DNA of 64,000 bases from Candidatus Acidiferrales bacterium (lineage in GTDB: Bacteria; Chloroflexota; Dormibacteria; Aeolococcales; Aeolococcaceae): assembly GCA_035566535.1 (NCBI GenBank), contig DATMRA010000130.1, positions 170-64,169 of the forward strand, written 5' to 3'. Shown piece by piece: positions 23,314 through 40,319 of this stretch (position 1 is its first letter; the number at the start of each line of letters is the position of its first letter). The translations under genes were made by a program, and so were the position numbers. The notes beneath the pieces are model-generated. The model had not been told where the DNA came from. It worked only from the letters and a program-made list of their open reading frames with translations, and ran no database searches.

Positions 23314-23521
23314 GCCACGCCGTCTCAGCCTCGAACCGCACCAATGCAACAGGCATGGCAACCTGGCCATGCAGGAACGCGCGTCATTCTCTCCGAGAAA
23401 CCGGGACCGTGCGGGCCGCCGACGCACCTCGCGGCGTCAGGCCACCCGGGTTGCACGTGCTTTCGCATCAAGCGCGCCTATACTCGAGAACGGCAGACTC
23501 AATACCGGTGCAGATGGAGTG

Positions 23522-26089: not shown

Positions 26090-26688
26090 TCCGCGTCCTC
26101 GTCGCCGACGACCACCCGGTGGTGCAGCACGGCTTGTGCACGATGCTCGAGCTGGAAGAGGACATCGATGTGATCGGCCGCGCAGCCGACGGCGGTGAGG
26201 CCGTCAGTCAGGCTTTCTCCCTCCAGCCGGACGTCATCCTGCTCGATGTGCAGATGCCGGTGATGGACGGCATCGAGGCGCTGCGACGCATTCGCGCGCA
26301 GGATCCGGAGGCGCGCGTCATCGTGCTCACGACGTACCGCAATGAGGACTACATCTTCCCCTCACTGCAAGCCGGGGCGCGCGGCTACCTCCTGAAAGAC
26401 GCGACGCGCGAGGAACTTGCCGGGGCCATTCGTCAGGTCGCGGCAGGGCAATCGCTGCTCGATCCCGCACTGGTACACGCCGCGCGGGCGGATCACCCGC
26501 CGCTTACCGCGCGCGAGCGCGACGTCCTGCGCCTCATGGCGGACGGCAAGAACAACTCGGAGATTGCCACGCAACTCTTCGTCAGTGAGAACACGGTGAA
26601 GACCCACGTGAGCAACATCTTCGACAAGTTGAACTGCCGCGACCGCGCTGCCGCGGTGCTGTCCGCCTGGAAGCGCCACATCATCTAG
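26086..26688 (+). CDS. NarL/FixJ-family response regulator (REC + LuxR-type HTH)
   Basis: 200 aa with MIRVLVADDHPVV...ILLDVQMP and a C-terminal LTARERDVLRLMADGKNNSEIATQLFVSENTVKTHVSNIF. Overlaps the kinase gene by 4 nt (ATGA). Confidence 0.9.
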   Translation: MIRVLVADDHPVVQHGLCTMLELEEDIDVIGRAADGGEAVSQAFSLQPDVILLDVQMPVMDGIEALRRIRAQDPEARVIVLTTYRNEDYIFPSLQAGARGYLLKDATREELAGAIRQVAAGQSLLDPALVHAARADHPPLTARERDVLRLMADGKNNSEIATQLFVSENTVKTHVSNIFDKLNCRDRAAAVLSAWKRHII

Positions 26689-26715
26689 GTCTTCGAGCCC
26701 CAATACAATCTCCGG

Positions 26716-28008
26716 ATGGCTGAGACCCTGGGGGTGGGACTGCTCGGTTTGGGCACCGTCGGCTCCGCGGTCGCCGCGCGACTCATGAGCGAGTGGGAAT
26801 TGCTCGCACAACGAGCCGGCGCGACTCCGGTGCTGCGTCGTGTTGCGGTCCGCGACGCCACCAGAAAGCGTGATATCGATCTGCGCGCCGTGCCGATCAC
26901 CGACGACCCGGCCAGCGTCGTTGACGATCCCACCGTGAGCGTTGTGGTGGAGGTGATGGGCGGTGTCGACCCGGCCACGACGCTGATTCAGCGAGCGCTG
27001 GAGCGGGGTAAGAGCGTGGTCACCGCCAACAAGGCCGTGATCGCGGAATCGGGCCCGCAACTGGCCGAACTGGCCGCTGCTCACGGAGCCGGCATCTGGT
27101 TCGAGGCGTCCGTCGGCGCTGGACTCCCTGTCGTCTCCGTGCTGCGCGAGTCGCTCGGCGGCGACCGCATCACCGCTATCGACGCCATCATCAACGGCAC
27201 CACCAACGTCATCCTCACGCGCATGCGCACCGACGGCGTCGCGTTCGAAACCGCGCTCGCTGAAGCGCAGCGCAGGGGATTCGCCGAGGCGGATCCGAGC
27301 TCGGACGTGGACGGCTGGGATGCCGCGTACAAGCTGATCATCATGTCGTGGCTCGCGTACGGCGCGCACGTCCCGGTGGAACAGGTTGACCGCCACGGCA
27401 TCCGGGCGATTCAACTGCCCGACCTCGCATACACCGGACAGCTCGGGTACAGCGTCAAGCTGCTCGCTCACTCGGAGCGGCGCGAGCGTCCGGCCGCAGT
27501 GCATCTTCGTGTGCGTCCGACGGCCGTTCCCAGCGGGCACGCCCTCTTCGACATCAATGATTCTGCCAATGCTGTCTTCATCTCGAGCGACCTGGCGAGA
27601 TCGGTCGCGATCTCCGGGCTTGGCGCGGGCGGTCCCTCCACGGCCAGCGCCGTCGTGGCCGACATCGTGGCCGCCATCCGGCGGCGCGGCAGTCAACCCG
27701 GCCCGCCGCCGACGGCGCCGGCACAGCCGGTGAGCGATGAGGACATCGACGTCGCCGGCTACCTCCGTGTCCGCCTCGACGGGTCCGCCGACGCCCGCGC
27801 CATTGCCGTGCAGGCGCTGGAGGATCGCGGCGTGCCCGTGGTCGACGCCATCGACAAGCCGCCGCTCGACGGACCGCTTCCACAGCTTCTGATCCTCACG
27901 GGAATGGCGCCGCGCGCTGTGCACGACCGCGCCCTCGAAACGCTGGATACGCTGGCCGTCGTCCGCGAGATCGCGTGCTCCCTGGATCGCATCGAGACGG
28001 CCGCGTGA
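26716..28008 (+). CDS. hom: Homoserine dehydrogenase (with C-terminal ACT domain)
   Basis: 430 aa with N-terminal GLLGLGTVG and the conserved catalytic region; followed directly by thrC and thrB. Confidence 0.9.
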   Translation: MAETLGVGLLGLGTVGSAVAARLMSEWELLAQRAGATPVLRRVAVRDATRKRDIDLRAVPITDDPASVVDDPTVSVVVEVMGGVDPATTLIQRALERGKSVVTANKAVIAESGPQLAELAAAHGAGIWFEASVGAGLPVVSVLRESLGGDRITAIDAIINGTTNVILTRMRTDGVAFETALAEAQRRGFAEADPSSDVDGWDAAYKLIIMSWLAYGAHVPVEQVDRHGIRAIQLPDLAYTGQLGYSVKLLAHSERRERPAAVHLRVRPTAVPSGHALFDINDSANAVFISSDLARSVAISGLGAGGPSTASAVVADIVAAIRRRGSQPGPPPTAPAQPVSDEDIDVAGYLRVRLDGSADARAIAVQALEDRGVPVVDAIDKPPLDGPLPQLLILTGMAPRAVHDRALETLDTLAVVREIACSLDRIETAA

Positions 28009-29054
28009 GCGGCGGCGTCCTGGCGCGTTATTCAGAATGGCTGCCGCTGGACGAGGAGACACCACGCATCTCGCTGGGTGAGGGAAGCACCCCCTGCGTG
28101 GAGTCGCGCGTCATCGGGCCTCAGCTTGGGCTCGGATCACTCCATTTCAAGGTTGAAGGGCTGAACCCGACTGGCTCCTTCAAGGACCGTGGCATGGTCG
28201 TCGCCGTGGCGCGTGCGCTGCAGGAAGGAAGTCGCGTCCTCGTCTGCGCCTCGACCGGAAACACGAGCGCGTCGGCCGCTGCGTACGGCGCGCGATTCGG
28301 TCTCCGCACCGCGGTCGTGGTGCCCGAAGGCGGCGTCGCGGCGGGCAAGCTCCTGCAGGCGCAGGTGTACGGGGCAACCGTGATCGCCGTGCACGGCGGA
28401 TTCGACATCGCCCTCGACATCGTGCGGAAACTCGCCTCGAGAGGCGGCGTCACCCTGGTCAACAGCGTCAACCCATTTCGCATCGAGGGGCAGAAGACCG
28501 CGGCGTTCGAGATCGTCGACGAGCTCGGCGATGCACCGGAAATCGTCTGTCTGCCGGTTGGCAACGCGGGCAACATCACCGCGTACTGGCGCGGTTTTCG
28601 TGAGTACCACGCGGCCGGGCGCTCCACGCGCCTGCCGCGGATGATCGGTGGCCAGGCAGCCGGTGCCGCGCCGCTGGTGTCTGGACGGCCGGTCGCCGAT
28701 CCCCAGACGATCGCATCGGCGATTCGCATCGGCCAGCCGGCTTCATGGCAGGGAGCCGTCGCGGCTCGTGACGAGTCTGAAGGGCTCATCGACGCGGTGA
28801 CAGATGACGCAATCCTCGATGCTCAGCGGCGGCTCGCGTCACAGGAGGGGATCTTCGGTGAGCCGGCGTCCGCTGCAGCACTCGCCGTGCTCGAGAAGGC
28901 CGTACGCGACGGAGTGGTGCCACCGGGTGCGCACGTCGTGTGCGTCATCACCGGCAACGGCTTGAAGGACCCGGCCACCGTCGCGGCAGGCTTGCCAGAA
29001 CCGGTGCGCGTTCCGGCTGAGGTCGATACGGTCGCCGCTGCGTTGAATCTGTGA
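28005..29054 (+). CDS. thrC: Threonine synthase
   Basis: PLP-lysine motif GLNPTGSFKDRG. Start assigned to the GTG overlapping the hom stop (GTGA). Confidence 0.9.
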   Translation: MSGGVLARYSEWLPLDEETPRISLGEGSTPCVESRVIGPQLGLGSLHFKVEGLNPTGSFKDRGMVVAVARALQEGSRVLVCASTGNTSASAAAYGARFGLRTAVVVPEGGVAAGKLLQAQVYGATVIAVHGGFDIALDIVRKLASRGGVTLVNSVNPFRIEGQKTAAFEIVDELGDAPEIVCLPVGNAGNITAYWRGFREYHAAGRSTRLPRMIGGQAAGAAPLVSGRPVADPQTIASAIRIGQPASWQGAVAARDESEGLIDAVTDDAILDAQRRLASQEGIFGEPASAAALAVLEKAVRDGVVPPGAHVVCVITGNGLKDPATVAAGLPEPVRVPAEVDTVAAALNL

Positions 29055-29061
29055 GACCGCA

Positions 29062-29961
29062 ATGCAGGTGAAGATCGCGGTGCCGGCCACCGTGGCGAAC
29101 CTCGGTCCCGGCTTCGACATCCTCGCTCTTGCGTTGCAACTGCAGAACGACGTGCACGCCCAGGAGGTCGGCGGTGAGGACCTCACCGTGGATCCGGGCG
29201 CGGAGGCGCCCGATGAACTGCGCGACTCGCGGTTGAACCTGGTGACGCGCGCGTACACATTTGCGTGCGAGCGGCTCGCGGTGGCGGCTCACGGTGTCCA
29301 CTTCCGCTGCACCAACCGCATCCCGATGGCACGCGGCCTCGGTTCCAGCGCGGCGGCGGCTCTCGGAGGTGTGCTCGCCGCGGTTGCGTTGCACCAGGCC
29401 CCGTGGGACGAGGACGACGTCCTCGACTGTGTCGCGGAGTTGGAGGGCCATCGCGACAACGCTGCTGCGGCGCTGCTCGGCGGCCTGGCCATCTGCGCCC
29501 CGGGCGCACCGGCGGTGAACATGGCGGTCCCCGACGAGATCCGGGCGGTGCTGTTCATCCCGGCGACCGAGTTGCTCACCAAGCTCGCGCGCGATGTGGT
29601 TCCGCTGCAATTCTCCCGCGACGATGCCGTCTTCAACGCCGCGCGCTGCGCGCTGCTGGTACGGGCGCTGGCGCTGAAGGACTACGACTCCCTCGGCTAT
29701 GCCATGGACGACCGCTGGCATCAGCCGGCGCGCAGCGCGCTCCTGCCCCATGCCGCAGCACTCATGTCTGCCGCGCGCGAGGCTGGTGCATCCGGCGCGG
29801 CGCTCGCCGGCGCGGGCCCATCCGTGATCGCCCTGACCCCGCTTGACCCTGCTCCAATCGTCGAAGCGATGACGGCCACAGCGCGCGGCCACGGCATGCC
29901 CGGGTCGGCATCCGTGTTTACGCCGCGCAACTTCGGCACACGTGTCGACGTGCGACCGTGA
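29062..29961 (+). CDS. thrB: Homoserine kinase (GHMP kinase)
   Basis: 299 aa with N-terminal PATVANLGPGFDILALAL and the GHMP motif PMARGLGSSAAA. Confidence 0.9.
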   Translation: MQVKIAVPATVANLGPGFDILALALQLQNDVHAQEVGGEDLTVDPGAEAPDELRDSRLNLVTRAYTFACERLAVAAHGVHFRCTNRIPMARGLGSSAAAALGGVLAAVALHQAPWDEDDVLDCVAELEGHRDNAAAALLGGLAICAPGAPAVNMAVPDEIRAVLFIPATELLTKLARDVVPLQFSRDDAVFNAARCALLVRALALKDYDSLGYAMDDRWHQPARSALLPHAAALMSAAREAGASGAALAGAGPSVIALTPLDPAPIVEAMTATARGHGMPGSASVFTPRNFGTRVDVRP

Positions 29962-31169
29962 CACGGATTGTCCAGAAATACGGTGGCACGAGCGTCGCCA
30001 CGCCGGCCAAGTTGCGTCGCGTCGCCCGTCGCGTGCGCGAGTCGCTACCGGGCACGGAAGTTGTCGTCGTCGTGAGTGCCATGGGCGAGACCACCGACGA
30101 ACTCATCGCGCTGGCGCACAGCATCACCAGTGACCCGCCGTCTCGCGAGATGGACATGCTCCTCAGCAGCGGCGAGATCATCACCGCGCCTCTGCTCGCA
30201 ATGGCCCTTGTTGCCGCGGGCACGCCCGCGGTTTCCCTCACCGGTCTGCAGGCCGGCATCCGGACCAGCCGTGTGCATCGCACGGCTCGCATCGTCGACA
30301 TCATTCCGCAGCGCATCCTCGATGAGCTCGGCGGCGGCCGCGTCGTGGTCGTCGCTGGATTTCAAGGCGCCACTGAGGAACTCGACATCACGACGCTGGG
30401 TCGTGGCGGTTCAGACACGTCGGCAGTCGCTCTCGCAGTTGCACTGCACGCCGACCGCTGCGAGATTTTCACTGACGTGACCGGAGTGCACACGGCCGAC
30501 CCCCGTATCGTCCCCGAGGCGCGCGTCATCCCCGTCATCGCGTACGACGAGATGTTGGAGTTCGCCGCGGCGGGTGCCCGCGTGGTCCATCCGCGCGCAG
30601 TCGAGATCGGCGAGGCATATGCGATGGAGATACGGGTACGCTCGACCTTCGACGATCACCCCGGCACCATCATCTCCAATAACACGAACATGGAAGAACG
30701 GCAGAAGGTACGCGGCATCGCGCACGAGACAGACGTGGCCAAGATCACGCTCTTGGGCGTGCCCGACAGCCCCGGCGTGGCCGCAGCCATTTTCGGGCCA
30801 CTCGCCGACGAGGCGATCAACGTCGACATCATCGTTCAGAACGTGTCCCATGACGGCACAACCGACATGAGCTTCACGATCGCGGAGACCGACCTTCGAC
30901 GAGCCCAGCGGATGCTCGACGACCTGGCGAGGTCCACGGGCGCCCAGGGTTTCACCGCGACCGCCGACATAGCAAAGGTCAGCGTGATCGGCACCGGGCT
31001 GCGCACACCCGGAGTGGTTGCCCGGATTTTCCACGCGCTCGCGGAGGCCGGGATCAACATCGAGATGATCTCGTCGAGCGAGATCCATATCACGTGCATC
31101 ATCGACCGCGCCCGTGTTCGCGACGCGGTCAGCGCGCTGCATCAGGCATTCGAGCTCGAGAAGATCTAG
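29958..31169 (+). CDS. ask: Aspartate kinase (with two C-terminal ACT domains)
   Basis: 403 aa with N-terminal IVQKYGGTSV. GTG start overlapping the thrB stop (GTGA). Confidence 0.9.
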   Translation: MTRIVQKYGGTSVATPAKLRRVARRVRESLPGTEVVVVVSAMGETTDELIALAHSITSDPPSREMDMLLSSGEIITAPLLAMALVAAGTPAVSLTGLQAGIRTSRVHRTARIVDIIPQRILDELGGGRVVVVAGFQGATEELDITTLGRGGSDTSAVALAVALHADRCEIFTDVTGVHTADPRIVPEARVIPVIAYDEMLEFAAAGARVVHPRAVEIGEAYAMEIRVRSTFDDHPGTIISNNTNMEERQKVRGIAHETDVAKITLLGVPDSPGVAAAIFGPLADEAINVDIIVQNVSHDGTTDMSFTIAETDLRRAQRMLDDLARSTGAQGFTATADIAKVSVIGTGLRTPGVVARIFHALAEAGINIEMISSSEIHITCIIDRARVRDAVSALHQAFELEKI

Positions 31170-31174
31170 GCGAC

Positions 31175-32263
31175 GTGGCCCTCAGCGTGGGAATCGTCGG
31201 GCTGCCCAACGCGGGAAAATCGACGCTCTTCAATGCCCTGACGCGCGCCGGCGCCCAGGTGGGCAACTATCCCTTCACGACCATCGAGCCCAACACCGGC
31301 GTCGTCCCCGTGCCCGATGGGCGCCTGCTACGTCTCGCCGACCTGTTCCGGCCGCCGAAGGTCATCCCAGCCACGGTCACGTTCACCGACATCGCCGGCC
31401 TCGTGCGCGGCGCCAGCGGCGGCGAAGGCCTGGGCAATCGCTTCCTGGGCCACATCCGCGAGGTCGACGCAATCGCACTGGTGGTACGTGCGTTCGACGA
31501 CCCCGACGTGATCCACGTCGAGGGCGCGCTGGACCCGCTGCGTGACCTCGATGTCATCGAGCTCGAGCTCCAGCTCGCCGATCTCGAAACGGTCGCGCGC
31601 CGGCTGGAGCGCACCGAGAAGACTGCCCGGGTTCAGAAGGAGAAAGACGTGGCCGCAATAGCGCTCTTGCATCGCGTCGCCGGCCACCTCGACTCGGGCA
31701 GGTCCGTGCGCACGATGCAGCTCACCGACGAGGAACGCGGTGAGCTGCGCGAGCTCTGGCTGCTCACCGGAAAGCCGCTGCTCGTGGTGTACAACGCGGG
31801 CGAAAAACGCGCGGCGGATGTAATTCCTGACGCCGTGGTCGCGCGCGCGGCCGAGGCAGGTGGTGAAGCAGTTGCTGTTTCGGCCCGTATCGAGACCGAG
31901 TTGCTGGATCTCGACCCGGAGGACCGCGCCGCGTTCCTGACCGATATCGGCCTGAGCGAACCCGGGCTCGATCGCGTGGCTCGGGCTGCATATCACCTGC
32001 TCGAGCTGATCACCTTCTTCACCGCCGGCGACACCGAGGTTCGTGCGTGGACGCTCCGCCGGGGCGGCACGGCGCTCGATGCGGCGGGTGTTATCCATAC
32101 CGACTTCGCCAAGGGATTCATTCGCGCGGAGGTCGTGGATGTCGAGGACCTGCTGTCCGCGCGCTCGATCGTCACGGTCCGAGAGCTGGGGAAGCAACGG
32201 CTCGAAGGGCGAGACTATGTGATGCACGACGGCGACGTGGTGCACTTCCGGTTCAACGTGTGA
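31175..32263 (+). CDS. ychF: Redox-regulated ATPase YchF (Obg-family)
   Basis: Has GIVGLPNAGKSTLFNALT, the TGS domain and a C-terminal DUF933-like region. GTG start at 31175, just after the ask stop. Confidence 0.9.
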   Translation: MALSVGIVGLPNAGKSTLFNALTRAGAQVGNYPFTTIEPNTGVVPVPDGRLLRLADLFRPPKVIPATVTFTDIAGLVRGASGGEGLGNRFLGHIREVDAIALVVRAFDDPDVIHVEGALDPLRDLDVIELELQLADLETVARRLERTEKTARVQKEKDVAAIALLHRVAGHLDSGRSVRTMQLTDEERGELRELWLLTGKPLLVVYNAGEKRAADVIPDAVVARAAEAGGEAVAVSARIETELLDLDPEDRAAFLTDIGLSEPGLDRVARAAYHLLELITFFTAGDTEVRAWTLRRGGTALDAAGVIHTDFAKGFIRAEVVDVEDLLSARSIVTVRELGKQRLEGRDYVMHDGDVVHFRFNV

Positions 32264-32264
32264 C

Positions 32265-32999
32265 GTGCTGCTGATCCTCGATGACCCTGCCCCCGGCGCG
32301 GAGAACATGCGTCGCGATGTCGAACTGCTGCACGCGTGCGCGGCCGGTGAAATCGATGGCGCGCTGCGTATCTATGGCTTCGCGCCGCCGTGCTTGAGTC
32401 TCGGCCGGCTGCAGCCCGACAGTGACGTCGATCTCGTCGCCTGCGCGCGCGACGGCGTCGACGTGGTGCGGCGGCCGAGCGGCGGGCGCGCAGTGCTTCA
32501 CGACCAGGAGGTGACGTATGCGCTCGTCTGCCGCACCTCGGACCCGGCGTTCGGCGGCCACGTCCTCGAGTCGTGCGCTCGCATCCACGCGGCGGTGGCC
32601 CGCGGCCTGAAAACACTCGGGATCGACACCGCCGAGCACGCGCCGGGTGCGGACATGCGAGCCGCGGCAATCCACGGGGCAACATCCGCCGACTGCTTTG
32701 CCACGCCGGCGGCGCACGAGCTCGTCGACAGCAGCGGTCGCAAGCTGGTGGGGAGCGCGCAGGCGCGGTACCGAGGAGCCCTGCTGCAGCACGGAAGCGT
32801 GCTCCTGGAGCCGCCTCGGGCGGCGGCGTATCTCGGGCAACCAGCCGGGCGACCGGGTACGGGCATCCGGCAACTGATCGGCCGCGGCGTGACCCGCGAA
32901 GAGGTCAGCAGCGCGTTGGTCGAAGGGTTTCACGCCGCGCCGGGCTCGCGCCTGGAGATCAATTCGACCACCGCTGCCGTCAAAGCCGCCGACGCTTGA
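32265..32999 (+). CDS. Lipoate-protein ligase / octanoyltransferase family protein (BPL_LplA_LipB catalytic domain)
   Basis: 244 aa with the RRxSGGxAV(L/Y)HD motif (VVRRPSGGRAVLHDQEVTY) and the K residue in KLVGSAQ. Confidence 0.7.
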   Translation: MLLILDDPAPGAENMRRDVELLHACAAGEIDGALRIYGFAPPCLSLGRLQPDSDVDLVACARDGVDVVRRPSGGRAVLHDQEVTYALVCRTSDPAFGGHVLESCARIHAAVARGLKTLGIDTAEHAPGADMRAAAIHGATSADCFATPAAHELVDSSGRKLVGSAQARYRGALLQHGSVLLEPPRAAAYLGQPAGRPGTGIRQLIGRGVTREEVSSALVEGFHAAPGSRLEINSTTAAVKAADA

Positions 33000-33248
33000 C
33001 ACCACATTATGATGTGTTATCCTCCCGGTTAAGCCACAAGATGTTGGGCTGCACCTCCTCCGTCGGGTGGCTTCCTCGGCAGCGGGCGCCGGGTCCCTGC
33101 CCACCGCTCCGGCTTATAGCGTTCTGCTGAGGCCGTGCCATCCGGTGGCCCGCTGCCAATCCCCTCTTTAGGGAGACCGCAGGGAACCTGATCGCGCCGC
33201 GCGCCTGGTCGAAGCGTGTGTCGGTGCCTGATACGCTTCCAACGGTTC

Positions 33249-33686
33249 ATGGCCAAGAAAACGCGAAAGCAAAAGCAGCGTGCGGCCGCACGGCGCTCAA
33301 CGCCGGCAGGGACCACTCGGGTTCAGGCGCCGCAGCGACCGGTGGTGGACGACGAGTGGCAGCTTGGCGTCGCCGACACTGAGGACATCGAGCACGTCGA
33401 CGAGCCTGAGGCCGCAGAGTACGCAGCGGTCGATAGCGTTCCTGTCGCTGGGCGGCGCCGCATCGAGCGCGTCAGCGCCGTCACCGCCCAACGTGCGGTT
33501 CGCCAGGGACGTCCGCCCGCCAATGCCGCCGCCATGTTCCAGCCTCTTGAAAGCGACGACGCGGCCATCCCGTTCGACCGCGTGCCCTATGTCCCCGCTG
33601 ATCTCCGCCGCGTCGGGGTGATGGCGGTCTGCATGGTCGCGCTCATCGTCATCGCCGCGTTGATCGTCAGCCACGTGGTCAGCTGA
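33249..33686 (+). CDS. Hypothetical tail-anchored membrane protein (basic N-terminus, acidic middle, single TM at the extreme C-terminus)
   Basis: 145 aa from ATG MAKKTRKQKQ; high GC3; C-terminal ...RRVGVMAVCMVALIVIAALIVSHVVS*. The stop lies 6 nt before the start of the ArsA/Get3-like ATPase, suggesting translational coupling. Confidence 0.5.
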   Translation: MAKKTRKQKQRAAARRSTPAGTTRVQAPQRPVVDDEWQLGVADTEDIEHVDEPEAAEYAAVDSVPVAGRRRIERVSAVTAQRAVRQGRPPANAAAMFQPLESDDAAIPFDRVPYVPADLRRVGVMAVCMVALIVIAALIVSHVVS

Positions 33687-33692
33687 CGCCCC

Positions 33693-34868
33693 GTGCGGGT
33701 CATCCTCTACACGGGCAAGGGCGGCGTCGGGAAGACGACCGTCGCCGCGGCGACCGCTGTGCGCTGCGCGCAGTTGGGATACCGAACGCTCGTGATCAGC
33801 ACTGACGCTGCGCACAGCCTCGCCGACAGCCTGGACGTGAGCGTCGGCGAGCAACCCACCGAGGTTGCCCCAAATCTCTGGGCGCAGGAGGTCAATGCGC
33901 TCCACGAGCTTGAGAGTCACTGGGAGCGCATTCACGCCTACCTCACGGCGCTGTTCTCATCGCAGGAGGGCGTCGACGACATCGTCGCCGAGGAGCTGGC
34001 CTCTCCACCGGGGATGGAAGAGGTTGCCAGCCTGATGCAGATCAAGCACCACAAGAGCGACGGGCGCTTCGATGTGCTGATCGTCGACTGCGCCCCAACC
34101 GGTGAGACGTTGCAGCTGCTTGCGTTTCCCGACGTGGCGCGCTGGTATCTCAACAAGATCTTCCCCATTCAGCGGACCATCGCCAAGGTCGCGCGTCCCG
34201 TGGTGCAGCCGTTCACCAAGATCCCCCTGCCGGGAGATGAGATCTTCGGCCACGTGAAAGACCTGCTTCTCGACCTCGAGGGGATGAAGAAGATCCTCGG
34301 CGATCCCAAGGTCTGCACCGTGCGGATCGTCCTGAACCTGGAGAAGATGGTGGTGAAGGAGGCGCAACGCGCGTTCACGTACCTGAGCCTCTACGACTAC
34401 CTCACCGACCTGGTTGTCGTGAACCGCATCCTTCCGCCCGAGGTCACCGACGACTATTTCGATGCCTGGCGCAAGGCGCAGCAGCGTTACTCCGACGTCG
34501 TCGATCAAGCGTTCTCGCCGGTGCCGATCCTGCGCACCCGCTTGTTCGACCACGAGATCGTCGGCCTCGACAGCTTGGCGGAGATGGCGGAGTCGATCTA
34601 TGGCAGCGACGATCCCTCGCAGATCTACTACCGAGCCGTGTCGCAGCGTTTGCAGAAGGTGGGAAACACCTATGAGCTGCGCCTGCATCTTCCCTTCGTC
34701 GGCAAGGAGGACGTGGACATCACGCATCGCGAAGGCGAGCTGTACGTGTCCGTTGGAGCGTACAAGCGAGAGATCTCGCTGCCGCGCATCCTCAACGGCA
34801 AGACCGTGACCCGGGGCAAGCTCGAGGAGGGAATGCTGTTGGTCACCTTTGCGGACGCGCGAACGTGA
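33693..34868 (+). CDS. ArsA/Get3-family P-loop ATPase with C-terminal HSP20-like (ArsA_HSP20) domain
   Basis: 391 aa with a deviant Walker A (YTGKGGVGKTTVAAATA) and the A-loop/switch regions of the ArsA/GET3 anion-transporting ATPase family. The C-terminal roughly 70 aa (YELRLHLPFVGKEDVDITHREGELYVSVGAYKREISLP...) has an alpha-crystallin-like beta-sandwich signature. Confidence 0.85.
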   Translation: MRVILYTGKGGVGKTTVAAATAVRCAQLGYRTLVISTDAAHSLADSLDVSVGEQPTEVAPNLWAQEVNALHELESHWERIHAYLTALFSSQEGVDDIVAEELASPPGMEEVASLMQIKHHKSDGRFDVLIVDCAPTGETLQLLAFPDVARWYLNKIFPIQRTIAKVARPVVQPFTKIPLPGDEIFGHVKDLLLDLEGMKKILGDPKVCTVRIVLNLEKMVVKEAQRAFTYLSLYDYLTDLVVVNRILPPEVTDDYFDAWRKAQQRYSDVVDQAFSPVPILRTRLFDHEIVGLDSLAEMAESIYGSDDPSQIYYRAVSQRLQKVGNTYELRLHLPFVGKEDVDITHREGELYVSVGAYKREISLPRILNGKTVTRGKLEEGMLLVTFADART

Positions 34869-35116
34869 GCGACGCGTGTCGAGCGTGCCCGGCTCGGCTG
34901 GTGGAGGAAGCGGGCCGGCTGGTGGGCACCTCCTTCAGTGACATAGTTCCTCCGGAGGCTCAGGTGCACCTGTTCAATGCGCAGCGCGAGTTGCTCCTCG
35001 CTGTTGCGGCGACAATCGAGCACAACACCTCGCGGGGCACGCCGGGGACCCGTCGCCGCCAGCCGCGAGGCGGCAAACCACAGTCGCGACGTCCGTCGCG
35101 CGTCGAGTTGGACTAG
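34865..35116 (+). CDS. Hypothetical small protein, translationally coupled to the ArsA-like ATPase (GTGA overlap)
   Basis: 83 aa with a basic C-terminal tail and no recognised domain. Its operon position is the main support. Confidence 0.35.
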   Translation: MSDACRACPARLVEEAGRLVGTSFSDIVPPEAQVHLFNAQRELLLAVAATIEHNTSRGTPGTRRRQPRGGKPQSRRPSRVELD

Positions 35117-35169
35117 CGCGCCTGAAAGAGCGGGGCGGCAGCGCGCGCCAGACGGTCGTCATCGACGGC

Positions 35170-35673
35170 GTGGCCTGGCCGGTGCAGGGCGCGCAGGTCG
35201 CGATCATCGACGCTGGTCGCCTCGTCCTGCAGTTCCGCCCGTGGCCGCCGGGTTGGGAGCTGCCGGGAGGTCACTGCGAAGATGGCGAGGATCCCGCGGT
35301 AACGGCGGCTCGCGAGGCGGAGGAGGAGACCGGATACCGGGTTCACATCGATGCCGTGGTCGGCGTGTACACGTGGAGCGGCCTGCGCGCTGTGGGCGAT
35401 GTCCTGTACCTGGCGAGCATCAGCGGCGGCGTCCCGCGGCGCAGCATCGAGGCGTGGACCTCACGACTGGTCGGACCTGAAGATGTGCCTCGAACGGTGT
35501 TTCCGTGGATGCGGCAGCGCATCACCGACGCGTTCGCCAGCGCCGTAGGTGAGCCACCGGTTCATCGCGTCCAGCCGGTGACGCTGTACCACGTGGCGGG
35601 ATTCGCAACGGCCTGGATGCGCATCCCGCTGGATCGGTTCCGCAAGCGCCGCGCCCGGCGGCACATACAGTAG
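35170..35673 (+). CDS. NUDIX hydrolase
   Basis: Nudix box GGHCEDGEDPAVTAAREAEEETG. Confidence 0.85.
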   Translation: MAWPVQGAQVAIIDAGRLVLQFRPWPPGWELPGGHCEDGEDPAVTAAREAEEETGYRVHIDAVVGVYTWSGLRAVGDVLYLASISGGVPRRSIEAWTSRLVGPEDVPRTVFPWMRQRITDAFASAVGEPPVHRVQPVTLYHVAGFATAWMRIPLDRFRKRRARRHIQ

Positions 35674-35680
35674 GCAGCTG

Positions 35681-36670
35681 ATGACGACCGTGCTGTTGTT
35701 TGCCGCGGGCCTTGTGTTACTCGTGGTGGCGGCCGAACTGTTCACCAACGCAATCGAATGGGCCGGATTCCGGATGCGTCTGGCGAGCGGCGCGACCGGC
35801 AGCCTGCTCGCGGCGCTGGGCACCTCGCTGCCGGAGTTCGTCGTTCCGGTCGTGGCGCTGGCCGCGCACTCGCCATCCGCCGATTCCGTGGCGATGGGCG
35901 CAGTGATCGGGGCGCCATTCCTGCTGCTGACCATCGGCGCCGGTATCACCGGGCTCGCGGTCTTGACGCGTCGCGGAGCGCGCGAGCTCGTTCTTGATCA
36001 GCGGCAGCCGCGACGAGACCTCGGCGTGTTTCTGGCAGCGTATCCGCTGGCCCTGCTCGCAATTGCGCTGCCACACGCGGCGCGGATCGCGGTTGGCGTG
36101 CTGCTGCTGGCGGGCTACGCCGGCTATATCGTGGCCACGTTGCGGAGCGGCGGGCCCACCGACGAGATGCCCGAGCCGTTGCACATCGTGCGCTGGCGGA
36201 CAGGGCAACCGCACGCGGTTTTCATCAGTGTTCAGCTGGCGGTTGCGATCGTGATGCTCGTGGCCGGATCGCAACTCTTCGTTGATGGCTTGAACCGGGC
36301 GTCCGACGCTCTGCACGTTTCCACGTTGGTCCTTGCGCTTGTGGTCATACCCTTGGCCACCGAGCTGCCCGAGACCCTCAACAGCGTGCTCTGGGTGCGC
36401 TCGCGCGACGACGCGCTGGCCTTCGGCAATGTCGCCGGATCGGCGACATTCCAGTCGTGCGTGCTCGCCTTCATCGGTGTGGTGTTCACCACGTGGCAGC
36501 CTGGCCCCACGGGTCTGATCAGCGCCGGTCTCACGATCGCGACTGCCGCGGCGCTGCTGGCGCTGCTCTGGCACGGGCGCGCACCCGGGTCCAGGCTGGC
36601 GCTCGCGGCATTGCCATGGATCGGGTATGTCGTCGCGCAGGTCGTCACCGGTGGCCGCCTGGGAATGTGA
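35681..36670 (+). CDS. Na+/Ca2+ (cation/Ca2+) exchanger family membrane protein (CaCA, YrbG-like)
   Basis: 329 aa with about 10 TM segments. Two alpha-repeat signature motifs (GTSLPE and ATELPE) sit in antiparallel halves. Confidence 0.8.
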   Translation: MTTVLLFAAGLVLLVVAAELFTNAIEWAGFRMRLASGATGSLLAALGTSLPEFVVPVVALAAHSPSADSVAMGAVIGAPFLLLTIGAGITGLAVLTRRGARELVLDQRQPRRDLGVFLAAYPLALLAIALPHAARIAVGVLLLAGYAGYIVATLRSGGPTDEMPEPLHIVRWRTGQPHAVFISVQLAVAIVMLVAGSQLFVDGLNRASDALHVSTLVLALVVIPLATELPETLNSVLWVRSRDDALAFGNVAGSATFQSCVLAFIGVVFTTWQPGPTGLISAGLTIATAAALLALLWHGRAPGSRLALAALPWIGYVVAQVVTGGRLGM

Positions 36671-36705
36671 CGGGATGCAGCGCAACCGTGTCAAGGTAGT
36701 GCGCC

Positions 36706-37611
36706 ATGAAGCTTGACGGAAAGGTTGCTGTGGTAACGGGGAGCGGGCGGGGCATTGGACGTGCGTACGCACGCGCGCTTGCGGAAGCAGGCTGCGCCGT
36801 GGTCGTCAACGATGTGGACTCGGATGTGGCCGAGGAGACCGCGGCAGGCATCGCCGCTGGTGGCGGCCGGGCGGTCGCAGAGGTGTGCGCGGTCGGATCG
36901 TCCGAGGCCGCCGACCGGCTGGTCGCGAAAGCCGTGGACGCGTTCGGCCGGTTGGACATCATGTGCACCAACGCGGGCATCCTTCGCGACCGCGTGCTCT
37001 GGAACATGAGCGACGAGGAGTTCGACGTCGTGATCGAGACACATCTGCGCGGCACGTTCACGTGCGCGCGCGCCGCGGTGCGGCGGATGCGTGAGCAGGA
37101 CGAGGGCGGGCGCGTGGTCGTGGTCTCGTCCATCGCAGGCCAGCGAGGAAACTTCGGTCAGACCAATTACGCGGCGGCCAAGGCAGGCATCGCAGCATTT
37201 GCACGCACGTGGGCGCTGGAGTGCGCGCGCAACCGCATAACCGTCAACGCCATCGTGCCCAACGCGATCACGCGCATGATCTCGACGATCCCCGGGATGG
37301 CGCCGCTGGTCGAAGCGGCGGAGCGCGGGGATCCCCTGCCTGACCTGGCACGCAAGCAGATGGGCATGGGCACGCCGGAGGACGTCGCCCCGCTCGTCGT
37401 CTTCCTCTGTTCGGATGACGCGGCGGAGATCACCGGACAGTGCATTGGACTGGGCGGAGACAAGCTGTCTCTGTGGGCGCACCCGAAGGAGATATCGGTC
37501 GCGTATCGCGACGGCGGCTGGACGGCCGACGGAATCGCGGAGGTCTTCTCCGCGTCCGTGGGTCAGCAGCTCGAGACGTACGGCATCCCATTCCTCGGTG
37601 GCAAGTCCTAA
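36706..37611 (+). CDS. Short-chain dehydrogenase/reductase (SDR) family oxidoreductase with C-terminal extension
   Basis: Has TGSGRGIGRAYA, NAG, the catalytic YAAAKAG, and a roughly 60-aa C-terminal extension. Confidence 0.85.
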   Translation: MKLDGKVAVVTGSGRGIGRAYARALAEAGCAVVVNDVDSDVAEETAAGIAAGGGRAVAEVCAVGSSEAADRLVAKAVDAFGRLDIMCTNAGILRDRVLWNMSDEEFDVVIETHLRGTFTCARAAVRRMREQDEGGRVVVVSSIAGQRGNFGQTNYAAAKAGIAAFARTWALECARNRITVNAIVPNAITRMISTIPGMAPLVEAAERGDPLPDLARKQMGMGTPEDVAPLVVFLCSDDAAEITGQCIGLGGDKLSLWAHPKEISVAYRDGGWTADGIAEVFSASVGQQLETYGIPFLGGKS

Positions 37612-37615
37612 GAAT

Positions 37616-38344
37616 TTAGTCGGGAGCCCGCGCCAGTGACGCGTCAACAACCGTGGGCGCTCTCAGGCTCAGCAGCGTGACCGTCGTCGCGTGAAGGAAT
37701 GCGACGGCGACCATCGCCAGAGCAACGTACACCGCGATCCCGGTGTTGACGACGAAGAAGTCCGTCAGGCTGAAGGGCGCGCCCTGGCCGGCCGCGGCGT
37801 TGCTGACCTTGTCGAGTATCACCGTCGGTGCGTGCACTTGATTGATCACGAGCGTGACGAGCGCGATCAGGCCGAGGCCGCCCAGCAGCAGAAAGTGCCG
37901 TCGGGTTGATGTGCGGCGCAGCAAACCCGCCACACCCCAGAGGATCGCGAGTGCGATCGCGATGAACCCGGCGAGTGCCAATGGCTGAACGCCGACTCTC
38001 ATGGCGTCGGATGAGATCGAGCCGGATCTGCCCAGCGCCGACTGGCTGGCGCCGCACGGCCCAGGTGGGGTGGTGAGTTGACTCGGTGCTGACCCGAGCA
38101 CGAAGTCGAGGCCGCTGTAGCTGAAGAGGTTCAGCCCCTGAAGCGAGTCGAGGCACGAGTTCAACTGGGCCGACTGCGCGGCGCCACCGGTCAGCGAGGA
38201 GGCCGCACTGAGAGTTTGCTTGGCAGCGCTCGTGTTGCACGAGACTCCCGCAAACGTGAAGAAGAAGCATGCCAGCGCGATGACGAAGAACGCGGGTGAA
38301 ATCCGCCGAGAGGTCGGCTCCGTCACGAGGGCATCCAGCTTCAC
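37616..38344 (-). CDS. Hypothetical integral membrane protein (about 4 TM, Cys-containing extracytoplasmic loop)
   Basis: 242-aa ORF with hydrophobic segments. Lies downstream of the MFS gene on the same strand. Confidence 0.4.
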   Translation of the reverse strand: MKLDALVTEPTSRRISPAFFVIALACFFFTFAGVSCNTSAAKQTLSAASSLTGGAAQSAQLNSCLDSLQGLNLFSYSGLDFVLGSAPSQLTTPPGPCGASQSALGRSGSISSDAMRVGVQPLALAGFIAIALAILWGVAGLLRRTSTRRHFLLLGGLGLIALVTLVINQVHAPTVILDKVSNAAAGQGAPFSLTDFFVVNTGIAVYVALAMVAVAFLHATTVTLLSLRAPTVVDASLARAPD

Positions 38345-38377
38345 AACCGCTTCCTCCTCGAGTTCGCGATGAGCCGT

Positions 38378-39751
38378 CTACGTCAGCGCAAATCTAGATG
38401 ACACCGCCGGGTCTTCGTCCGCGTCAGCGAGCCGCGTGGCGCGGACTTTCACCAGGACCAACGCGCCGAGAAGGAAGAAAACCGCGGCGGCGACGAACAG
38501 CACGTGGTATCCCCCAACTCCTGGCACCCCCTGCGCCGGCGCTGTCCGCCCATTGACAGCGTCGACGACCGGCCCGAGCAACGCGGGGGCTGCTGCCTGA
38601 GCGCCCGCGGTCGCGAGGTTGGAGAAGCCAAGGAACTTTCCCGCACGCCGCCTGGGCGCGAGATCAACCATGAACGCCCAATCGACCGACACCACCATGC
38701 CGAAGCCCAGCGCAGCCGGCAACGCGAACAACACGACCTGGGTGACCGACGTGGCGACAAAGAACAGGAGGCAGGCCAGTGCACCGAACAGCGCCGCGGC
38801 CACCAGGACCGGTTTTCTGCCGACGCGGTCGCTGAGCCGCACCGCCGGATACGCGACGGCTATGCCGAAGATGATCACAACGGCGAGCATCGCCGACGTC
38901 GCGGTTTGGGCGGAGCCGAGGTCAAACCCGAACAGACGGTACTGCCCCCGAAAGGCATCGTTGATGTAATACGCGGCGAAGCGCTGAATGCACGCCAGAC
39001 CGGTCAGGATCAGAAAGCGACTCAGCACCACCCAGCAGAAGTCCGGGTAGCGGCGAAACTCCGATGCGTATCCGCGCAGTTTGTGGAACCAACCTCCGGA
39101 GGCCATCCGCGCCGGCGTCGTCTCCGTTTGTTCGGACAGCGGCGATTCGTGGATCCTCGCGACTGTGAGCAACGCCGTCAGCAGCACAACCGACGCAATG
39201 ACCAGGCACGCCGTGCGCGGCTTCAGCGGCCCGGCCGTCACGACGCCGGCAACCTGCCCCGTGAGCGTGGCGACGCCGAGCCAGCCCGACGCCGCTCCGC
39301 GCTGCGCACCCGGCACCGTGTCAGGCAGGAGCCCCTGGTACGCGCCCTGAGCCACGTTCATGAAGAACTGGAGCACGCAGTACACGGCGACGAGAAGCAG
39401 AAACGCCTGCACGCCGGCGATGAGCACGAGGCTGGCGACGGCCCCAAGCGCGCCCACCGCGATCAGCGGCCGGCGCCGGCCCCATCGACTCCGCAGCCGG
39501 TCCGAGAACGCGCCTGCGGCAGGCTGCACCAGGATCGCGACCAGCAGCCCACCCGACTCGAGCAGGCTGAGCGCGGTGTTCTTGCTCCCGGCCGAAACAA
39601 GCAGTGGATTGCCCGGCCCCGGATGCTCAGGCACGAGGATGAACGGCAGCGCCACGGCCAGCAGCGCGCCCCATACGAAGGAGATGCCGAACCAGAACGC
39701 GGCCAGCGTCAGCTGGCGGCGGGTCGTGATGAGCGCCCTGGCAGCAGCCAT
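38378..39751 (-). CDS. MFS transporter
   Basis: 457 aa with 12-14 predicted TM segments and the MFS loop 2-3 motif region (GAFSDRLRSRWGRRRP). Confidence 0.85.
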   Translation of the reverse strand: MAAARALITTRRQLTLAAFWFGISFVWGALLAVALPFILVPEHPGPGNPLLVSAGSKNTALSLLESGGLLVAILVQPAAGAFSDRLRSRWGRRRPLIAVGALGAVASLVLIAGVQAFLLLVAVYCVLQFFMNVAQGAYQGLLPDTVPGAQRGAASGWLGVATLTGQVAGVVTAGPLKPRTACLVIASVVLLTALLTVARIHESPLSEQTETTPARMASGGWFHKLRGYASEFRRYPDFCWVVLSRFLILTGLACIQRFAAYYINDAFRGQYRLFGFDLGSAQTATSAMLAVVIIFGIAVAYPAVRLSDRVGRKPVLVAAALFGALACLLFFVATSVTQVVLFALPAALGFGMVVSVDWAFMVDLAPRRRAGKFLGFSNLATAGAQAAAPALLGPVVDAVNGRTAPAQGVPGVGGYHVLFVAAAVFFLLGALVLVKVRATRLADADEDPAVSSRFALT

Positions 39752-39789
39752 CGACCGAACACTGTACGGCGGAGGCTCCGCTTGGAATG

Positions 39790-39932
39790 GGCGGAGGCGA
39801 TGAGACCCCGGAGGCGGGCGTCACGGAGGCGAGCCGGAACGGCTTGGAGCGAAGGGCGAGCCGAGTGCCGAGCCGCGGGCCCCCAGCGGGGGTCCGACGG
39901 CGTACCGCCGAAGGGTCTTGTCGACTCCGCCC
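39790..39932. repeat. Family-B structured intergenic element, copy 2 (about 143 bp). Core 39821-39900, flanked by the imperfect inverted repeats gggcggaggcgatgagaccccgg and ccgaagggtcttgtcgactccgccc.
   Basis: Core tcacggaggcgagccggaacggcttggagcgaagggcgagccgagtgccgagccgcgggcccccagcgggggtccgac. Lies 25 nt downstream of the csaA-like stop (minus strand). Confidence 0.75.
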
Positions 39933-39956
39933 TATTCCACAGCGCAGGCCGGAGCT

Positions 39957-40319
39957 TCAGCCTATGCGGTCGCCGGGTGAGCAGTCGCGCTCCGGCGTCA
40001 ACAACACGACCTCTTCGCTGCCGTGCTGGTACGCGCCCAAGATCAGGCTCTCGCTGCGCACGGGGCCGATCTGGCGCGGCGGCAGGTTCACCGTGCCGGC
40101 GACCAAACGGCCCACCAAGTCCTCCGGCTTGTACAAATCGGTGAGCCGCGCCGACGACCGCCGCGTCCCAAGTGGGCCGAAGTCGACAACCATGCGGTAG
40201 GCGGGCTTGCGCGCTTCCGGGAACGGCTCGCAGCTGACGACTCGGCCCACGCGGATGTCGACGGCGAAGAACTGCTCGGCGGGAACCTCAGGCAGCGGCG
40301 TAGCGGCGTCCTCTGACAC
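39957..40319 (-). CDS. tRNA-binding protein (CsaA/Trbp111/EMAP-like OB-fold)
   Basis: 120 aa matching the tRNA-binding domain family (FFAVDIRVGRVVSCEPFPEARKPAYRMVVDFG). Confidence 0.75.
   Translation of the reverse strand: MSEDAATPLPEVPAEQFFAVDIRVGRVVSCEPFPEARKPAYRMVVDFGPLGTRRSSARLTDLYKPEDLVGRLVAGTVNLPPRQIGPVRSESLILGAYQHGSEEVVLLTPERDCSPGDRIG

Follow-up and report, generated by a model that had tools for sequence, protein, structure and literature searches.

The stretch analysed here, a window of 64,000 nucleotides of contig DATMRA010000130.1 (Candidatus Acidiferrales bacterium, assembly GCA_035566535.1; GC content of the window, 67%), carries at positions 33249-35116 a putative operon of three genes, encoding a tail-anchored protein, a Get3/TRC40-family ATPase with a C-terminal alpha-crystallin domain, and a small protein of 83 residues designated ORF83. 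ORF83 is likely a dedicated cofactor of the ATPase. For the tail-anchored protein, a direct functional link of any kind with the ATPase was judged about as probable as its absence, or slightly more so. The whole package, a Get3-type ATPase with two dedicated small partners that is expressed from a probably leaderless operon and acts by the mechanism proposed below, is put forward tentatively, its chances being somewhat short of even.

The Get3-type ATPase and its putative operon

The three genes follow one another on the + strand: the tail-anchored open reading frame (ORF; 33249..33686, ATG to stop, 145 aa), the ATPase gene (33693..34868, GTG start, 391 aa) and ORF83 (34865..35116, GTG start, 83 aa, PF27253/DUF5304-like). 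The stop of the first gene lies 6 nt from the GTG of the second at 33693, and the GTG of ORF83 overlaps the TGA of the ATPase gene in the sequence GTGA; both junctions, as well as the HSP20-like domain at the C-terminus of the 391-aa ATPase, are as described in the first-pass annotation of this DNA. Codon-position GC was coding-like in all three frames, and all three products were conserved at the amino-acid level in related genomes. Actinobacteria had been taken as the host group; the closest loci all proved to be from Candidatus Dormibacterota, a phylum in which there are no known phototrophs. A metagenome-assembled genome encodes a protein 100% identical to the product of the tail-anchored ORF. 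Relatives in Dormibacterota were sampled as 28 species-level genomes found via the ATPase (59-91% identity), 27 of which include upstream sequence. The ATPase gene is in the same frame as the tail-anchored ORF, with TGA and two codons between them (33684-33695). Programmed read-through from one into the other is unlikely, because in relatives the length of the gap is not a multiple of three.

The Get3 domain of the ATPase (~33693-34616, + strand) matched Pfam ArsA_ATPase (PF02374; E 2.5e-91) and the alpha-crystallin domain (~34644-34856, + strand) matched ArsA_HSP20 (PF17886; E 1.5e-19, 69.7 bits vs. a cut-off of 22.5). The protein scored 261.5 bits against TIGR00345 (TRC40/GET3/ArsA subfamily; cut-off 135), 83.8 against TIGR04291 (ArsA equivalog; cut-off 650) and 140 against NF050088 (Nostoc NosAFP equivalog; cut-off 325). 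Its closest solved relative was the archaeal Get3 of M. thermautotrophicus (3ZQ6; 5.9e-49), with that of M. jannaschii (3UG6) and Chlamydomonas ARSA1 also among the best, while NosGet3d (3IGF; 9e-23) and E. coli ArsA (4e-28, mainly in the N-terminal half) were weaker. The alignment with the archaeal Get3 proteins ran end to end through the ATPase domain and took in both the A-loop and the helix 7-9 region, but 3ZQ6 has a CEFC motif and neither archaeal chain covers the alpha-crystallin region of the query. Searched alone against solved structures, the alpha-crystallin domain retrieved only residues 307-368 of NosGet3d (3IGF; E 1.5e-4), to whose alpha-crystallin domain it is homologous.

In an alignment of 30 sequences from Dormibacterota, Chloroflexota, Actinomycetota, Cyanobacteriota and Bacteroidota, the P-loop (deviant Walker A, GKGGVGKT), switch I (STDxAHSLxD) and switch II (DxAPTxxT) were invariant, as were Asn244 and the A-loop-region elements P278, G291 and L295. 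No cysteine was conserved in this alignment, the ATPase's own being C25, C133 and C208, and the CxxC zinc-binding dimerisation motif was absent (EVTDDYFDAW in the ATPase vs. ESDCEFCNAR in 3ZQ6). The client-binding region (residues ~99-208) aligned without gaps to residues 135-244 of human TRC40, and residues ~100-210 covered residues 128-238 of yeast Get3 according to alignment-table coordinates only; E. coli ArsA aligned with this region at switch II only. On these alignments, the ATPase carries a helix 7-9 region (TRC40 insert) of Get3 length. At the level of sequence, it is a single-domain member of the Get3/TRC40 family with an intact active site.

Switch II of the ATPase reads DCAPTGET (34092-34115, residues 132-139), with Glu in place of the His of Get3 and ArsA (DTAPTGHT). 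Within the Dormibacterota alignment this Glu was invariant; across phyla it was present in at least 90% of sequences, some Actinomycetota and one cyanobacterial member having Ala or Ser instead. An AlphaFold2 model of the monomer (input relatives 75-91% identical) reached a predicted local distance difference test score (pLDDT) of 45.7 and a predicted template modelling score of 0.28, too poor for inspection of the groove; the same low-confidence model gave beta strands over residues 318-388.

The case for an arsenite-efflux ArsA consists of automatic names ('arsenite-transporting ATPase') and membership in Pfam ArsA_ATPase. E. coli ArsA (1F48) shares PF02374, the deviant Walker A and the DxAPTG of switch II with the window protein; however, it is made of tandem ATPase domains (~580 aa), has metalloid-binding cysteines and belongs to an ars operon, none of which applies to the ATPase studied here. 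The single ATPase domain, the TIGR04291 score, the lack of conserved cysteines, the insert that aligns to Get3/TRC40 and not to ArsA, and the gene context, with no arsB, acr3, arsC, arsR or arsD within ~10 kb (Pfam scans of genes 23153-40319), effectively refute this identity, in agreement with the first-pass annotation, which had preferred a Get3-type function and had seen neither an ArsA cysteine triad nor ars genes nearby. The automatic annotation of some relatives reads 'arsenite/tail-anchored protein-transporting ATPase'.

The combination of Get3 and alpha-crystallin domains is already known: it is described in Pfam (PF17886) and in Farkas 2019 (PMC6593721) and Barlow 2023 (PMC10248533), and it is routinely annotated as 'Get3/ArsA family'. 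Get3 proteins of Group 6 have a hydrophobic groove, a TRC40 insert and an alpha-crystallin domain, lack CxxC, and come from phyla that include many non-photosynthetic ones (Farkas 2019, PMC6593721). The window ATPase is like Group 6/Get3d in its single Get3 domain, TRC40-type insert, C-terminal alpha-crystallin domain (PF02374 and PF17886) and absence of CxxC. Switch I, switch II and the A-loop are kept, as in Sll0086 and in the Group 6 members of green non-sulfur bacteria, whereas Get3d of Nostoc (3IGF/8EGK) and Arabidopsis (8ELF) has a degenerate active site and no A-loop; the core of the window ATPase is nearer to archaeal Get3. Since it has an intact active site and A-loop region and NF050088 remained below its cut-off, the ATPase can be assigned to the 'conserved' Group 6/Get3d subgroup, as are Sll0086 and the green non-sulfur bacterial members, and is not an orthologue of the Nostoc/Arabidopsis proteins.

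For the Group 6 homologues a general chaperone role was favoured, and no indication was found that they target tail-anchored proteins in bacteria (Farkas 2019, PMC6593721). In vitro, Get3d of both Nostoc and Arabidopsis had ATPase activity and was able to capture a tail-anchored protein; the role of the alpha-crystallin domain was described as unclear, and new partners would be required (Barlow 2023, PMC10248533). Neither of these two papers on Group 6 and Get3d reports gene partners (PMC6593721, PMC10248533), whereas the window locus has two candidates.

The probable small partner ORF83

ORF83 consists of an optional CxxCP, two helices and a disordered basic tail ending in RVELD (35099-35113). 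AlphaFold2 (60-sequence alignment) predicted helices at residues 9-27 and 30-57 (pLDDT >90 for 30-50) followed by the disordered basic tail. ORF83 itself had no match in the Pfam copy scanned, which is a copy without PF27253, and no credible match in a PDB profile search; close homologues (89-90% identical) carry a precomputed PF27253 match. Comparison of the Dormibacterota ORF83 family with actinobacterial DUF5304-like ORFs by hhalign gave Prob 88% and E 3e-6, one of these ORFs passed the DUF5304 (PF17230) cut-off (30.7 vs. 26.8), and a hidden Markov model (HMM) built from Dormibacterota only matched the actinobacterial ORFs in place. ORF83 is probably a short relative of the DUF5304 (PF17230)/PF27253 proteins of Actinomycetota and has the same position, overlapping the ArsA_HSP20 stop; the actinobacterial proteins differ in their length of 100-200 aa, their CxxCPxC motif and an acidic tail after I-D-L.

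A homologue of ORF83 was found directly downstream of the ATPase in 28/28 Dormibacterota genomes and in 8 Actinomycetota loci, with stop and start often overlapping. Metagenome contigs were scanned with an alignment of alpha-crystallin Get3 proteins from outside Dormibacterota and Actinomycetota, which gave 45 full-length loci, 42 of them with at least 250 nt of downstream sequence. The immediate downstream ORF (60-110 aa) ended in [IV]x[IVL]x in 25 of these 42 loci, and in 11 of the 25 its start overlapped the ATPase stop by 4 nt. Among all ORFs of 50 aa or more on these contigs, 2.5% had the same ending; the nominal binomial p for 25/42 is ~1e-29, calculated on related sequences and on an ORF set chosen after inspection. 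Eight of the metagenomic partner ORFs were recognised by the Dormibacterota-only HMM (E 6e-12 to 4.5e-6) and further ones share the CxxC and the helix pattern. Behind ArsA/Get3 relatives that lack the alpha-crystallin domain no partner ORF was found (0/21 loci). From its distribution, ORF83 appears to be a more general partner of alpha-crystallin-bearing Get3 ATPases than the tail-anchored protein.

The C-terminal motif [RK][IV]x[IVL] was present in 119/120 ORF83 relatives; the Dormibacterota members end in RVELD/E, and those of Actinomycetota have KIDLDD with an acidic tail behind it. The other feature shared by the family is the helix PPEAQxHLxNAQRELLLA. In small heat-shock proteins (sHSPs), the beta4/beta8 groove of the alpha-crystallin domain is bound by a C-terminal IxI/V motif. 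A similar ending, [RK]-[IV]-x-[IVL]-[DE], closes the flexible tail of the ORF83 family, which co-occurs specifically with an alpha-crystallin-bearing Get3, but motif and domain would here sit on two proteins, and the alpha-crystallin domain of Get3d lacks the beta6 dimerisation loop. By analogy with sHSPs, we propose that the terminal IxI-like motif of ORF83 may dock on the alpha-crystallin domain, with correlative support from the partner ORF counts in loci with and without this domain. A holdase reading of the HSP20 domain, as given in the first-pass annotation, received no support, and the IxI-like small partner suggests a docking role. A natural fusion of ORF83 with the ATPase was not found. 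The 252-aa relative P0291 is an ORF83 homologue run into the downstream M50 peptidase gene, probably by a frameshift.

Gene order around the ATPase differed in other phyla. In the Actinomycetota loci L032-L034, L039, L040, L042 and L050 the order was SRPBCC (polyketide-cyclase/START-like), ArsA_HSP20, DUF5304-like partner; ROK-family kinase genes followed in L034, L039, L040, L042 and L050 and other genes in L032 and L033. The actinobacterial operon is thus unlike that of the window both upstream (SRPBCC) and downstream (ROK), and look-up of a Nocardioides DUF5304-like protein gave the order SRPBCC, ArsA_HSP20, partner (overlapping), ROK, ROK. This order resembles the Streptomyces region upstream of glkA, where S. 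coelicolor SCO2127, which has been linked to carbon catabolite effects, may belong to the DUF5304-like family. In the Chloroflexota loci L027-L030 the alpha-crystallin Get3 gene starts 3 nt after the stop of a GH57 1,4-alpha-glucan branching enzyme gene, and the small partner ORF was not found there. In a low-GC metagenome-assembled genome labelled Cyanobacteriota (L035:1568-2691), two paralogous winged-helix (MarR/TrmB-like) proteins are encoded directly upstream of the alpha-crystallin Get3. Their C-termini read KKIDIE and KKINIE and share the terminal motif of ORF83 homologues, but no homology with the ORF83 family was detected.

The tail-anchored protein and its genomic linkage to the ATPase

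The product of 33249-33686 has no signal peptide, its N-terminus being highly basic without a hydrophobic core. Its sole hydrophobic segment is a transmembrane domain (TMD) at residues ~122-144 of 145 (33612-33680, + strand), which is followed by a one-residue tail and preceded by Arg-Arg, fitting an N-in topology. By its predicted topology the protein falls under the operational definition of tail-anchored proteins, as the first-pass annotation had it. A cleaved C-terminal sorting signal (LPXTG, PEP-CTERM or similar) is unlikely because there is no signal peptide, the positive charges are N-terminal to the TMD, and none of the NCBIfam C-terminal sorting-signal models matched at E<=1.

The ORF, for which coding-like codon-position GC was noted above, is conserved: a large protein collection contained 476 relatives at E<=1e-3, all labelled hypothetical, whose named sources were Dormibacterota or 'Chloroflexi' bins. 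Among 120 relatives, the TMD had a median Kyte-Doolittle value of 3.25 over 19 residues and was followed by at most 14 residues; 116 had a single hydrophobic segment, the other 4 showing a second hydrophobic window, and the gene-called N-terminus was MA[KR][KR] in 102. Three modules are conserved in the family alignment. The first is the N-terminal basic peptide (MAKKTRKQKQRAAxRR in the family; MAKKTRKQKQRAAARR at 33249-33296 in the window), the second is RRR[IV]ER[LV] (RRRIER, 33453-33473), and the third is the juxtamembrane motif PLExxDAAIPFDRVPYVPxDLRRV (33543-33614) with the TMD, all on the + strand. The Pro/Ala/acidic linker that separates them varies freely between relatives. An exhaustive profile search (1.84 billion representatives) gave only 128 clusters at 50% identity, all of 31-236 aa and none with domain fusions or added domains; even among the weakest matches the N-terminus was basic, and juxtamembrane motif and terminal TMD were preserved. 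The protein had no Pfam, NCBIfam or PDB match, hence no homology to Get1, Get2 or CAML was detected. With its nearly invariant basic N-terminal peptide on a long disordered linker, the protein could be a membrane tether or regulator no less readily than a passive substrate.

In 27/27 Dormibacterota genomes the gene immediately preceding the ATPase is the tail-anchored one, with a gap of 3-96 nt in 26 of them and of 413 nt in one, and it is contiguous with the ATPase gene and ORF83 in every genome sampled. The linkage is kept while the surroundings change. Only some half of the loci have an lplA-like gene, and the RNA element described below is inverted in 8. A Peptidase_M50 gene (site-2-protease-type, HExxH...LDG), which in 23/28 Dormibacterota relatives follows the ORF83 homologue after 10-20 nt and overlaps the NUDIX start (e.g. 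L001:5444-6181), is missing in the window and in five relatives, and other loci have extra genes before NUDIX. No match to M50 was obtained by tblastn of the whole 64-kb window, where ORF83 is followed by NUDIX after 53 nt (35116-35170). In the genome loci of Chloroflexota, Actinomycetota, Cyanobacteriota and Bacteroidota no tail-anchored-like ORF was found beside the ATPase. As regards conservation of the triad, which the first-pass annotation had in view for Actinobacteria, all Dormibacterota sampled have the three genes, and Actinomycetota keep the ATPase and the small partner with SRPBCC upstream instead.

Taken together with the ATPase family, these data make a tail-anchored-protein handling module at this locus plausible. 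The eukaryotic GET/TRC pathway employs the same ATPase family, and the GET client class is that of tail-anchored proteins. By family analogy and from the in-vitro data of Barlow 2023, the ATPase would act as a homodimer that uses ATP to shield very hydrophobic helices and to hand them over at the cytoplasmic membrane. In Dormibacterota the tail-anchored protein would be its physical partner, its C-terminal TMD being of the type that Get3 captures post-translationally; once anchored, the basic N-terminal peptide on its flexible linker of ~100 residues may re-bind or regulate the ATPase in a Get2-like manner. ORF83 would be a translationally coupled, family-wide cofactor, a helical hairpin whose flexible tail brings the terminal V-x-L to the alpha-crystallin domain, and this domain would have a docking or regulatory role rather than that of a holdase. 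The three genes are presumably co-transcribed.

The comparison with Get2 rests on architecture: Get2 is a membrane protein with an N-terminal basic RERR motif on a disordered linker, and this motif binds Get3 (PMC8530227). The alpha-crystallin domain of Get3d occupies the site of Get4 in the GET pathway. Unlike GET/TRC, the locus shows no homology to Get1, Get2, Get4, Get5 or Sgt2 and its candidate tether has a single TMD, so that the analogy is a functional one only. An extension of the mechanism beyond this phylum is doubtful. According to it, bacteria with alpha-crystallin Get3 would run a minimal GET-like system with its partners encoded beside the ATPase, in which the IxI of the ORF83 superfamily plugs into the alpha-crystallin domain, the tail-anchored protein is first client and receptor in Dormibacterota, and a site-2 protease, ancestrally part of this operon, serves for turnover.

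Several observations weigh against the proposed mechanism. The link with the tail-anchored gene is confined to one phylum; a tail-anchored ORF was upstream in 0/39 metagenomic alpha-crystallin Get3 loci with upstream sequence. Since the ATPase family much exceeds the tail-anchored family in age and breadth, serving this one client cannot be the reason for which the ATPase exists; the tail-anchored protein is a lineage-specific accessory or client. Within Dormibacterota, ychF upstream and NUDIX downstream are also retained in most genomes, and the adjacency may therefore partly be inherited synteny. The number of tail-anchored proteins does not correlate with the presence of such ATPases, and other chaperones target tail-anchored proteins in E. 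coli (Farkas 2019, PMC6593721). In Get3d crystal structures the alpha-crystallin domain is packed on the dimer interface (PMC10248533), the monomer model of the ATPase is poor (pLDDT 45.7), and no partner ORF was seen at roughly one in three of the metagenomic alpha-crystallin loci.

Part of this evidence suits the main rival reading, in which the ATPase with ORF83 is a general ATP-regulated holdase for hydrophobic cargo, proteins or lipids, and the tail-anchored protein is a syntenic bystander with an unrelated membrane function. The general chaperone role favoured for Group 6 (Farkas 2019, PMC6593721) and the co-purification of AtGet3d with molecules of ~750 Da, a mass consistent with phospholipids (PMC10248533), agree with it, as do the upstream gene of Actinomycetota, which encodes a lipid-binding-type SRPBCC protein and not a membrane protein, the absence of the tail-anchored gene at the 39 other loci and the broad synteny of the ychF...NUDIX block in Dormibacterota. 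We nevertheless consider it less likely: the tail-anchored gene and the ATPase remain contiguous and tightly spaced in all 27 genomes while the flanks rearrange, and the topology of the neighbour is that of the exact client class of the ATPase family, for which the background rate in the metagenomic loci was 4/1127 ORFs.

It is improbable, in turn, that the tail-anchored protein is not a client at all but a membrane receptor or regulator, whose basic N-terminal peptide binds the ATPase dimer and recruits it to the membrane. The peptide is nearly invariant, and even in the most divergent members the N-terminus is still basic, in contrast to the freely varying linker; co-expression from an operon would suit subunits of one machine. 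Besides Get2, precedents are the positively charged, disordered N-termini by which ParB, MinE and McdB bind ParA/MinD ATPases (10.1101/2022.06.09.495121). However, the missing Pfam match gives no homology to Get1, Get2 or CAML, the same ATPase occurs in other phyla without any such protein, and basic N-termini also bind nucleic acids, ribosomes and anionic lipids. The preferred substrates of site-2 proteases are type II single-pass proteins whose extracytoplasmic tails are very short, precisely the topology of the tail-anchored protein. Together with the M50 gene close behind ORF83 in 23/28 relatives, this could point to a membrane-tethered factor freed by intramembrane proteolysis, with M50 as its partner in the ancestral cluster and the ATPase handling the TMD before or after cleavage; but the tail-anchored protein is unchanged in the window and the five relatives without M50, its TMD has few helix-breaking residues, and this explanation is very improbable. 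The handling of the tail-anchored protein by the ATPase, with ORF83 as cofactor, was retained as the preferred reading.

Surroundings of the operon and significance

The region 33000-33248 upstream of the operon had been described as a strongly structured non-coding leader of about 250 bp. It is non-coding, but its fold was not significantly stable (minimum free energy z = -1.37; 18/200 shuffles fold as well), and it is best read, from sequence conservation, as a stand-alone small-RNA (sRNA) gene neighbouring the operon rather than as its leader. A sigma70-like promoter (TTGACA, 16-nt spacer, TGtTATCCT; 10/12 positions, with TG extension) at 32996..33023 (+ strand), the only promoter-like site in 32800-35400, precedes a conserved, unclassified sRNA gene at 33030..33180 (+ strand; ~130-150 nt, with the core at 33030-33160). 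The 3' end of the latter is uncertain, with a weak terminal hairpin near 33160-33176. By nhmmer, the element was present in 17 Dormibacterota loci, 9 times on the operon strand and 8 times on the opposite strand, and the promoter was conserved in register and orientation with it in 17/17. RNAalifold gave a long helix with compensatory changes (e.g. G-C to A-U in 4 sequences; double changes at 8/25 pairs), and the stretch CACAAGAUGUxGGG was invariant.

Searches of the non-coding stretch and seven homologous loci gave no Rfam match, either at the gathering threshold or at E<=1-5, and no signal recognition particle RNA motifs were seen on inspection of the stretch. E. coli 6S RNA contains a stretch similar to CCACAAGAAUGUGG. 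An identity as 6S RNA was rejected, since a closed rod with a central bubble is not what the structure prediction shows.

A probable extended -10 element of the operon itself (TGaTACGCT, 33229..33237, + strand) ends 11 nt before the ATG. In 20/28 loci there is a TAnnnT hexamer whose end lies 8-14 nt ahead of the start codon, with an upstream TGn in 14 of them. No Shine-Dalgarno sequence was found between the -10-like element and the ATG, which together with the spacing implies that the operon mRNA is probably leaderless or near-leaderless in the clade of the window and supports ATG 33249 as the start. Distant clades (L015-17, L026, L031) have GGAG before a TTG start instead.

The genes surrounding the operon (23153-40319, Pfam) include a two-component system, hom, a PALP enzyme (thrC-like), a GHMP kinase (thrB-like), ask, ychF, an lplA-like ligase, NUDIX, a Na/Ca exchanger, SDR, an MFS transporter and a tRNA-binding protein. 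The first 76 nt of the listed ychF ORF (31094-31169; start GTG 31094) lie within the end of the aspartokinase gene. The true start of ychF is probably downstream of this GTG, near 31172-31180, because homologues align only from residue ~27-30 of the listed ORF.

Three features of the locus were not found in the Group 6/Get3d literature consulted: a phylum-wide operon of a tail-anchored protein with a Get3-type ATPase, the adjacent sRNA gene, and the small ORF as a widespread partner family specific to alpha-crystallin Get3, with an sHSP-like terminal motif. They bear on the open question of what bacterial and plastid Get3-alpha-crystallin proteins, and their crystallin domain, do. The locus offers two candidate partners, the tail-anchored protein and the small cofactor, which are testable by simple binding experiments. 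The cofactor was seen across at least two phyla and in further metagenomic loci, and the IxI-like C-terminus and the helix are its only universally conserved features. If the proposed docking is true, the alpha-crystallin domain would gain a function, and a handle on the problem of chloroplast Get3d would be provided.

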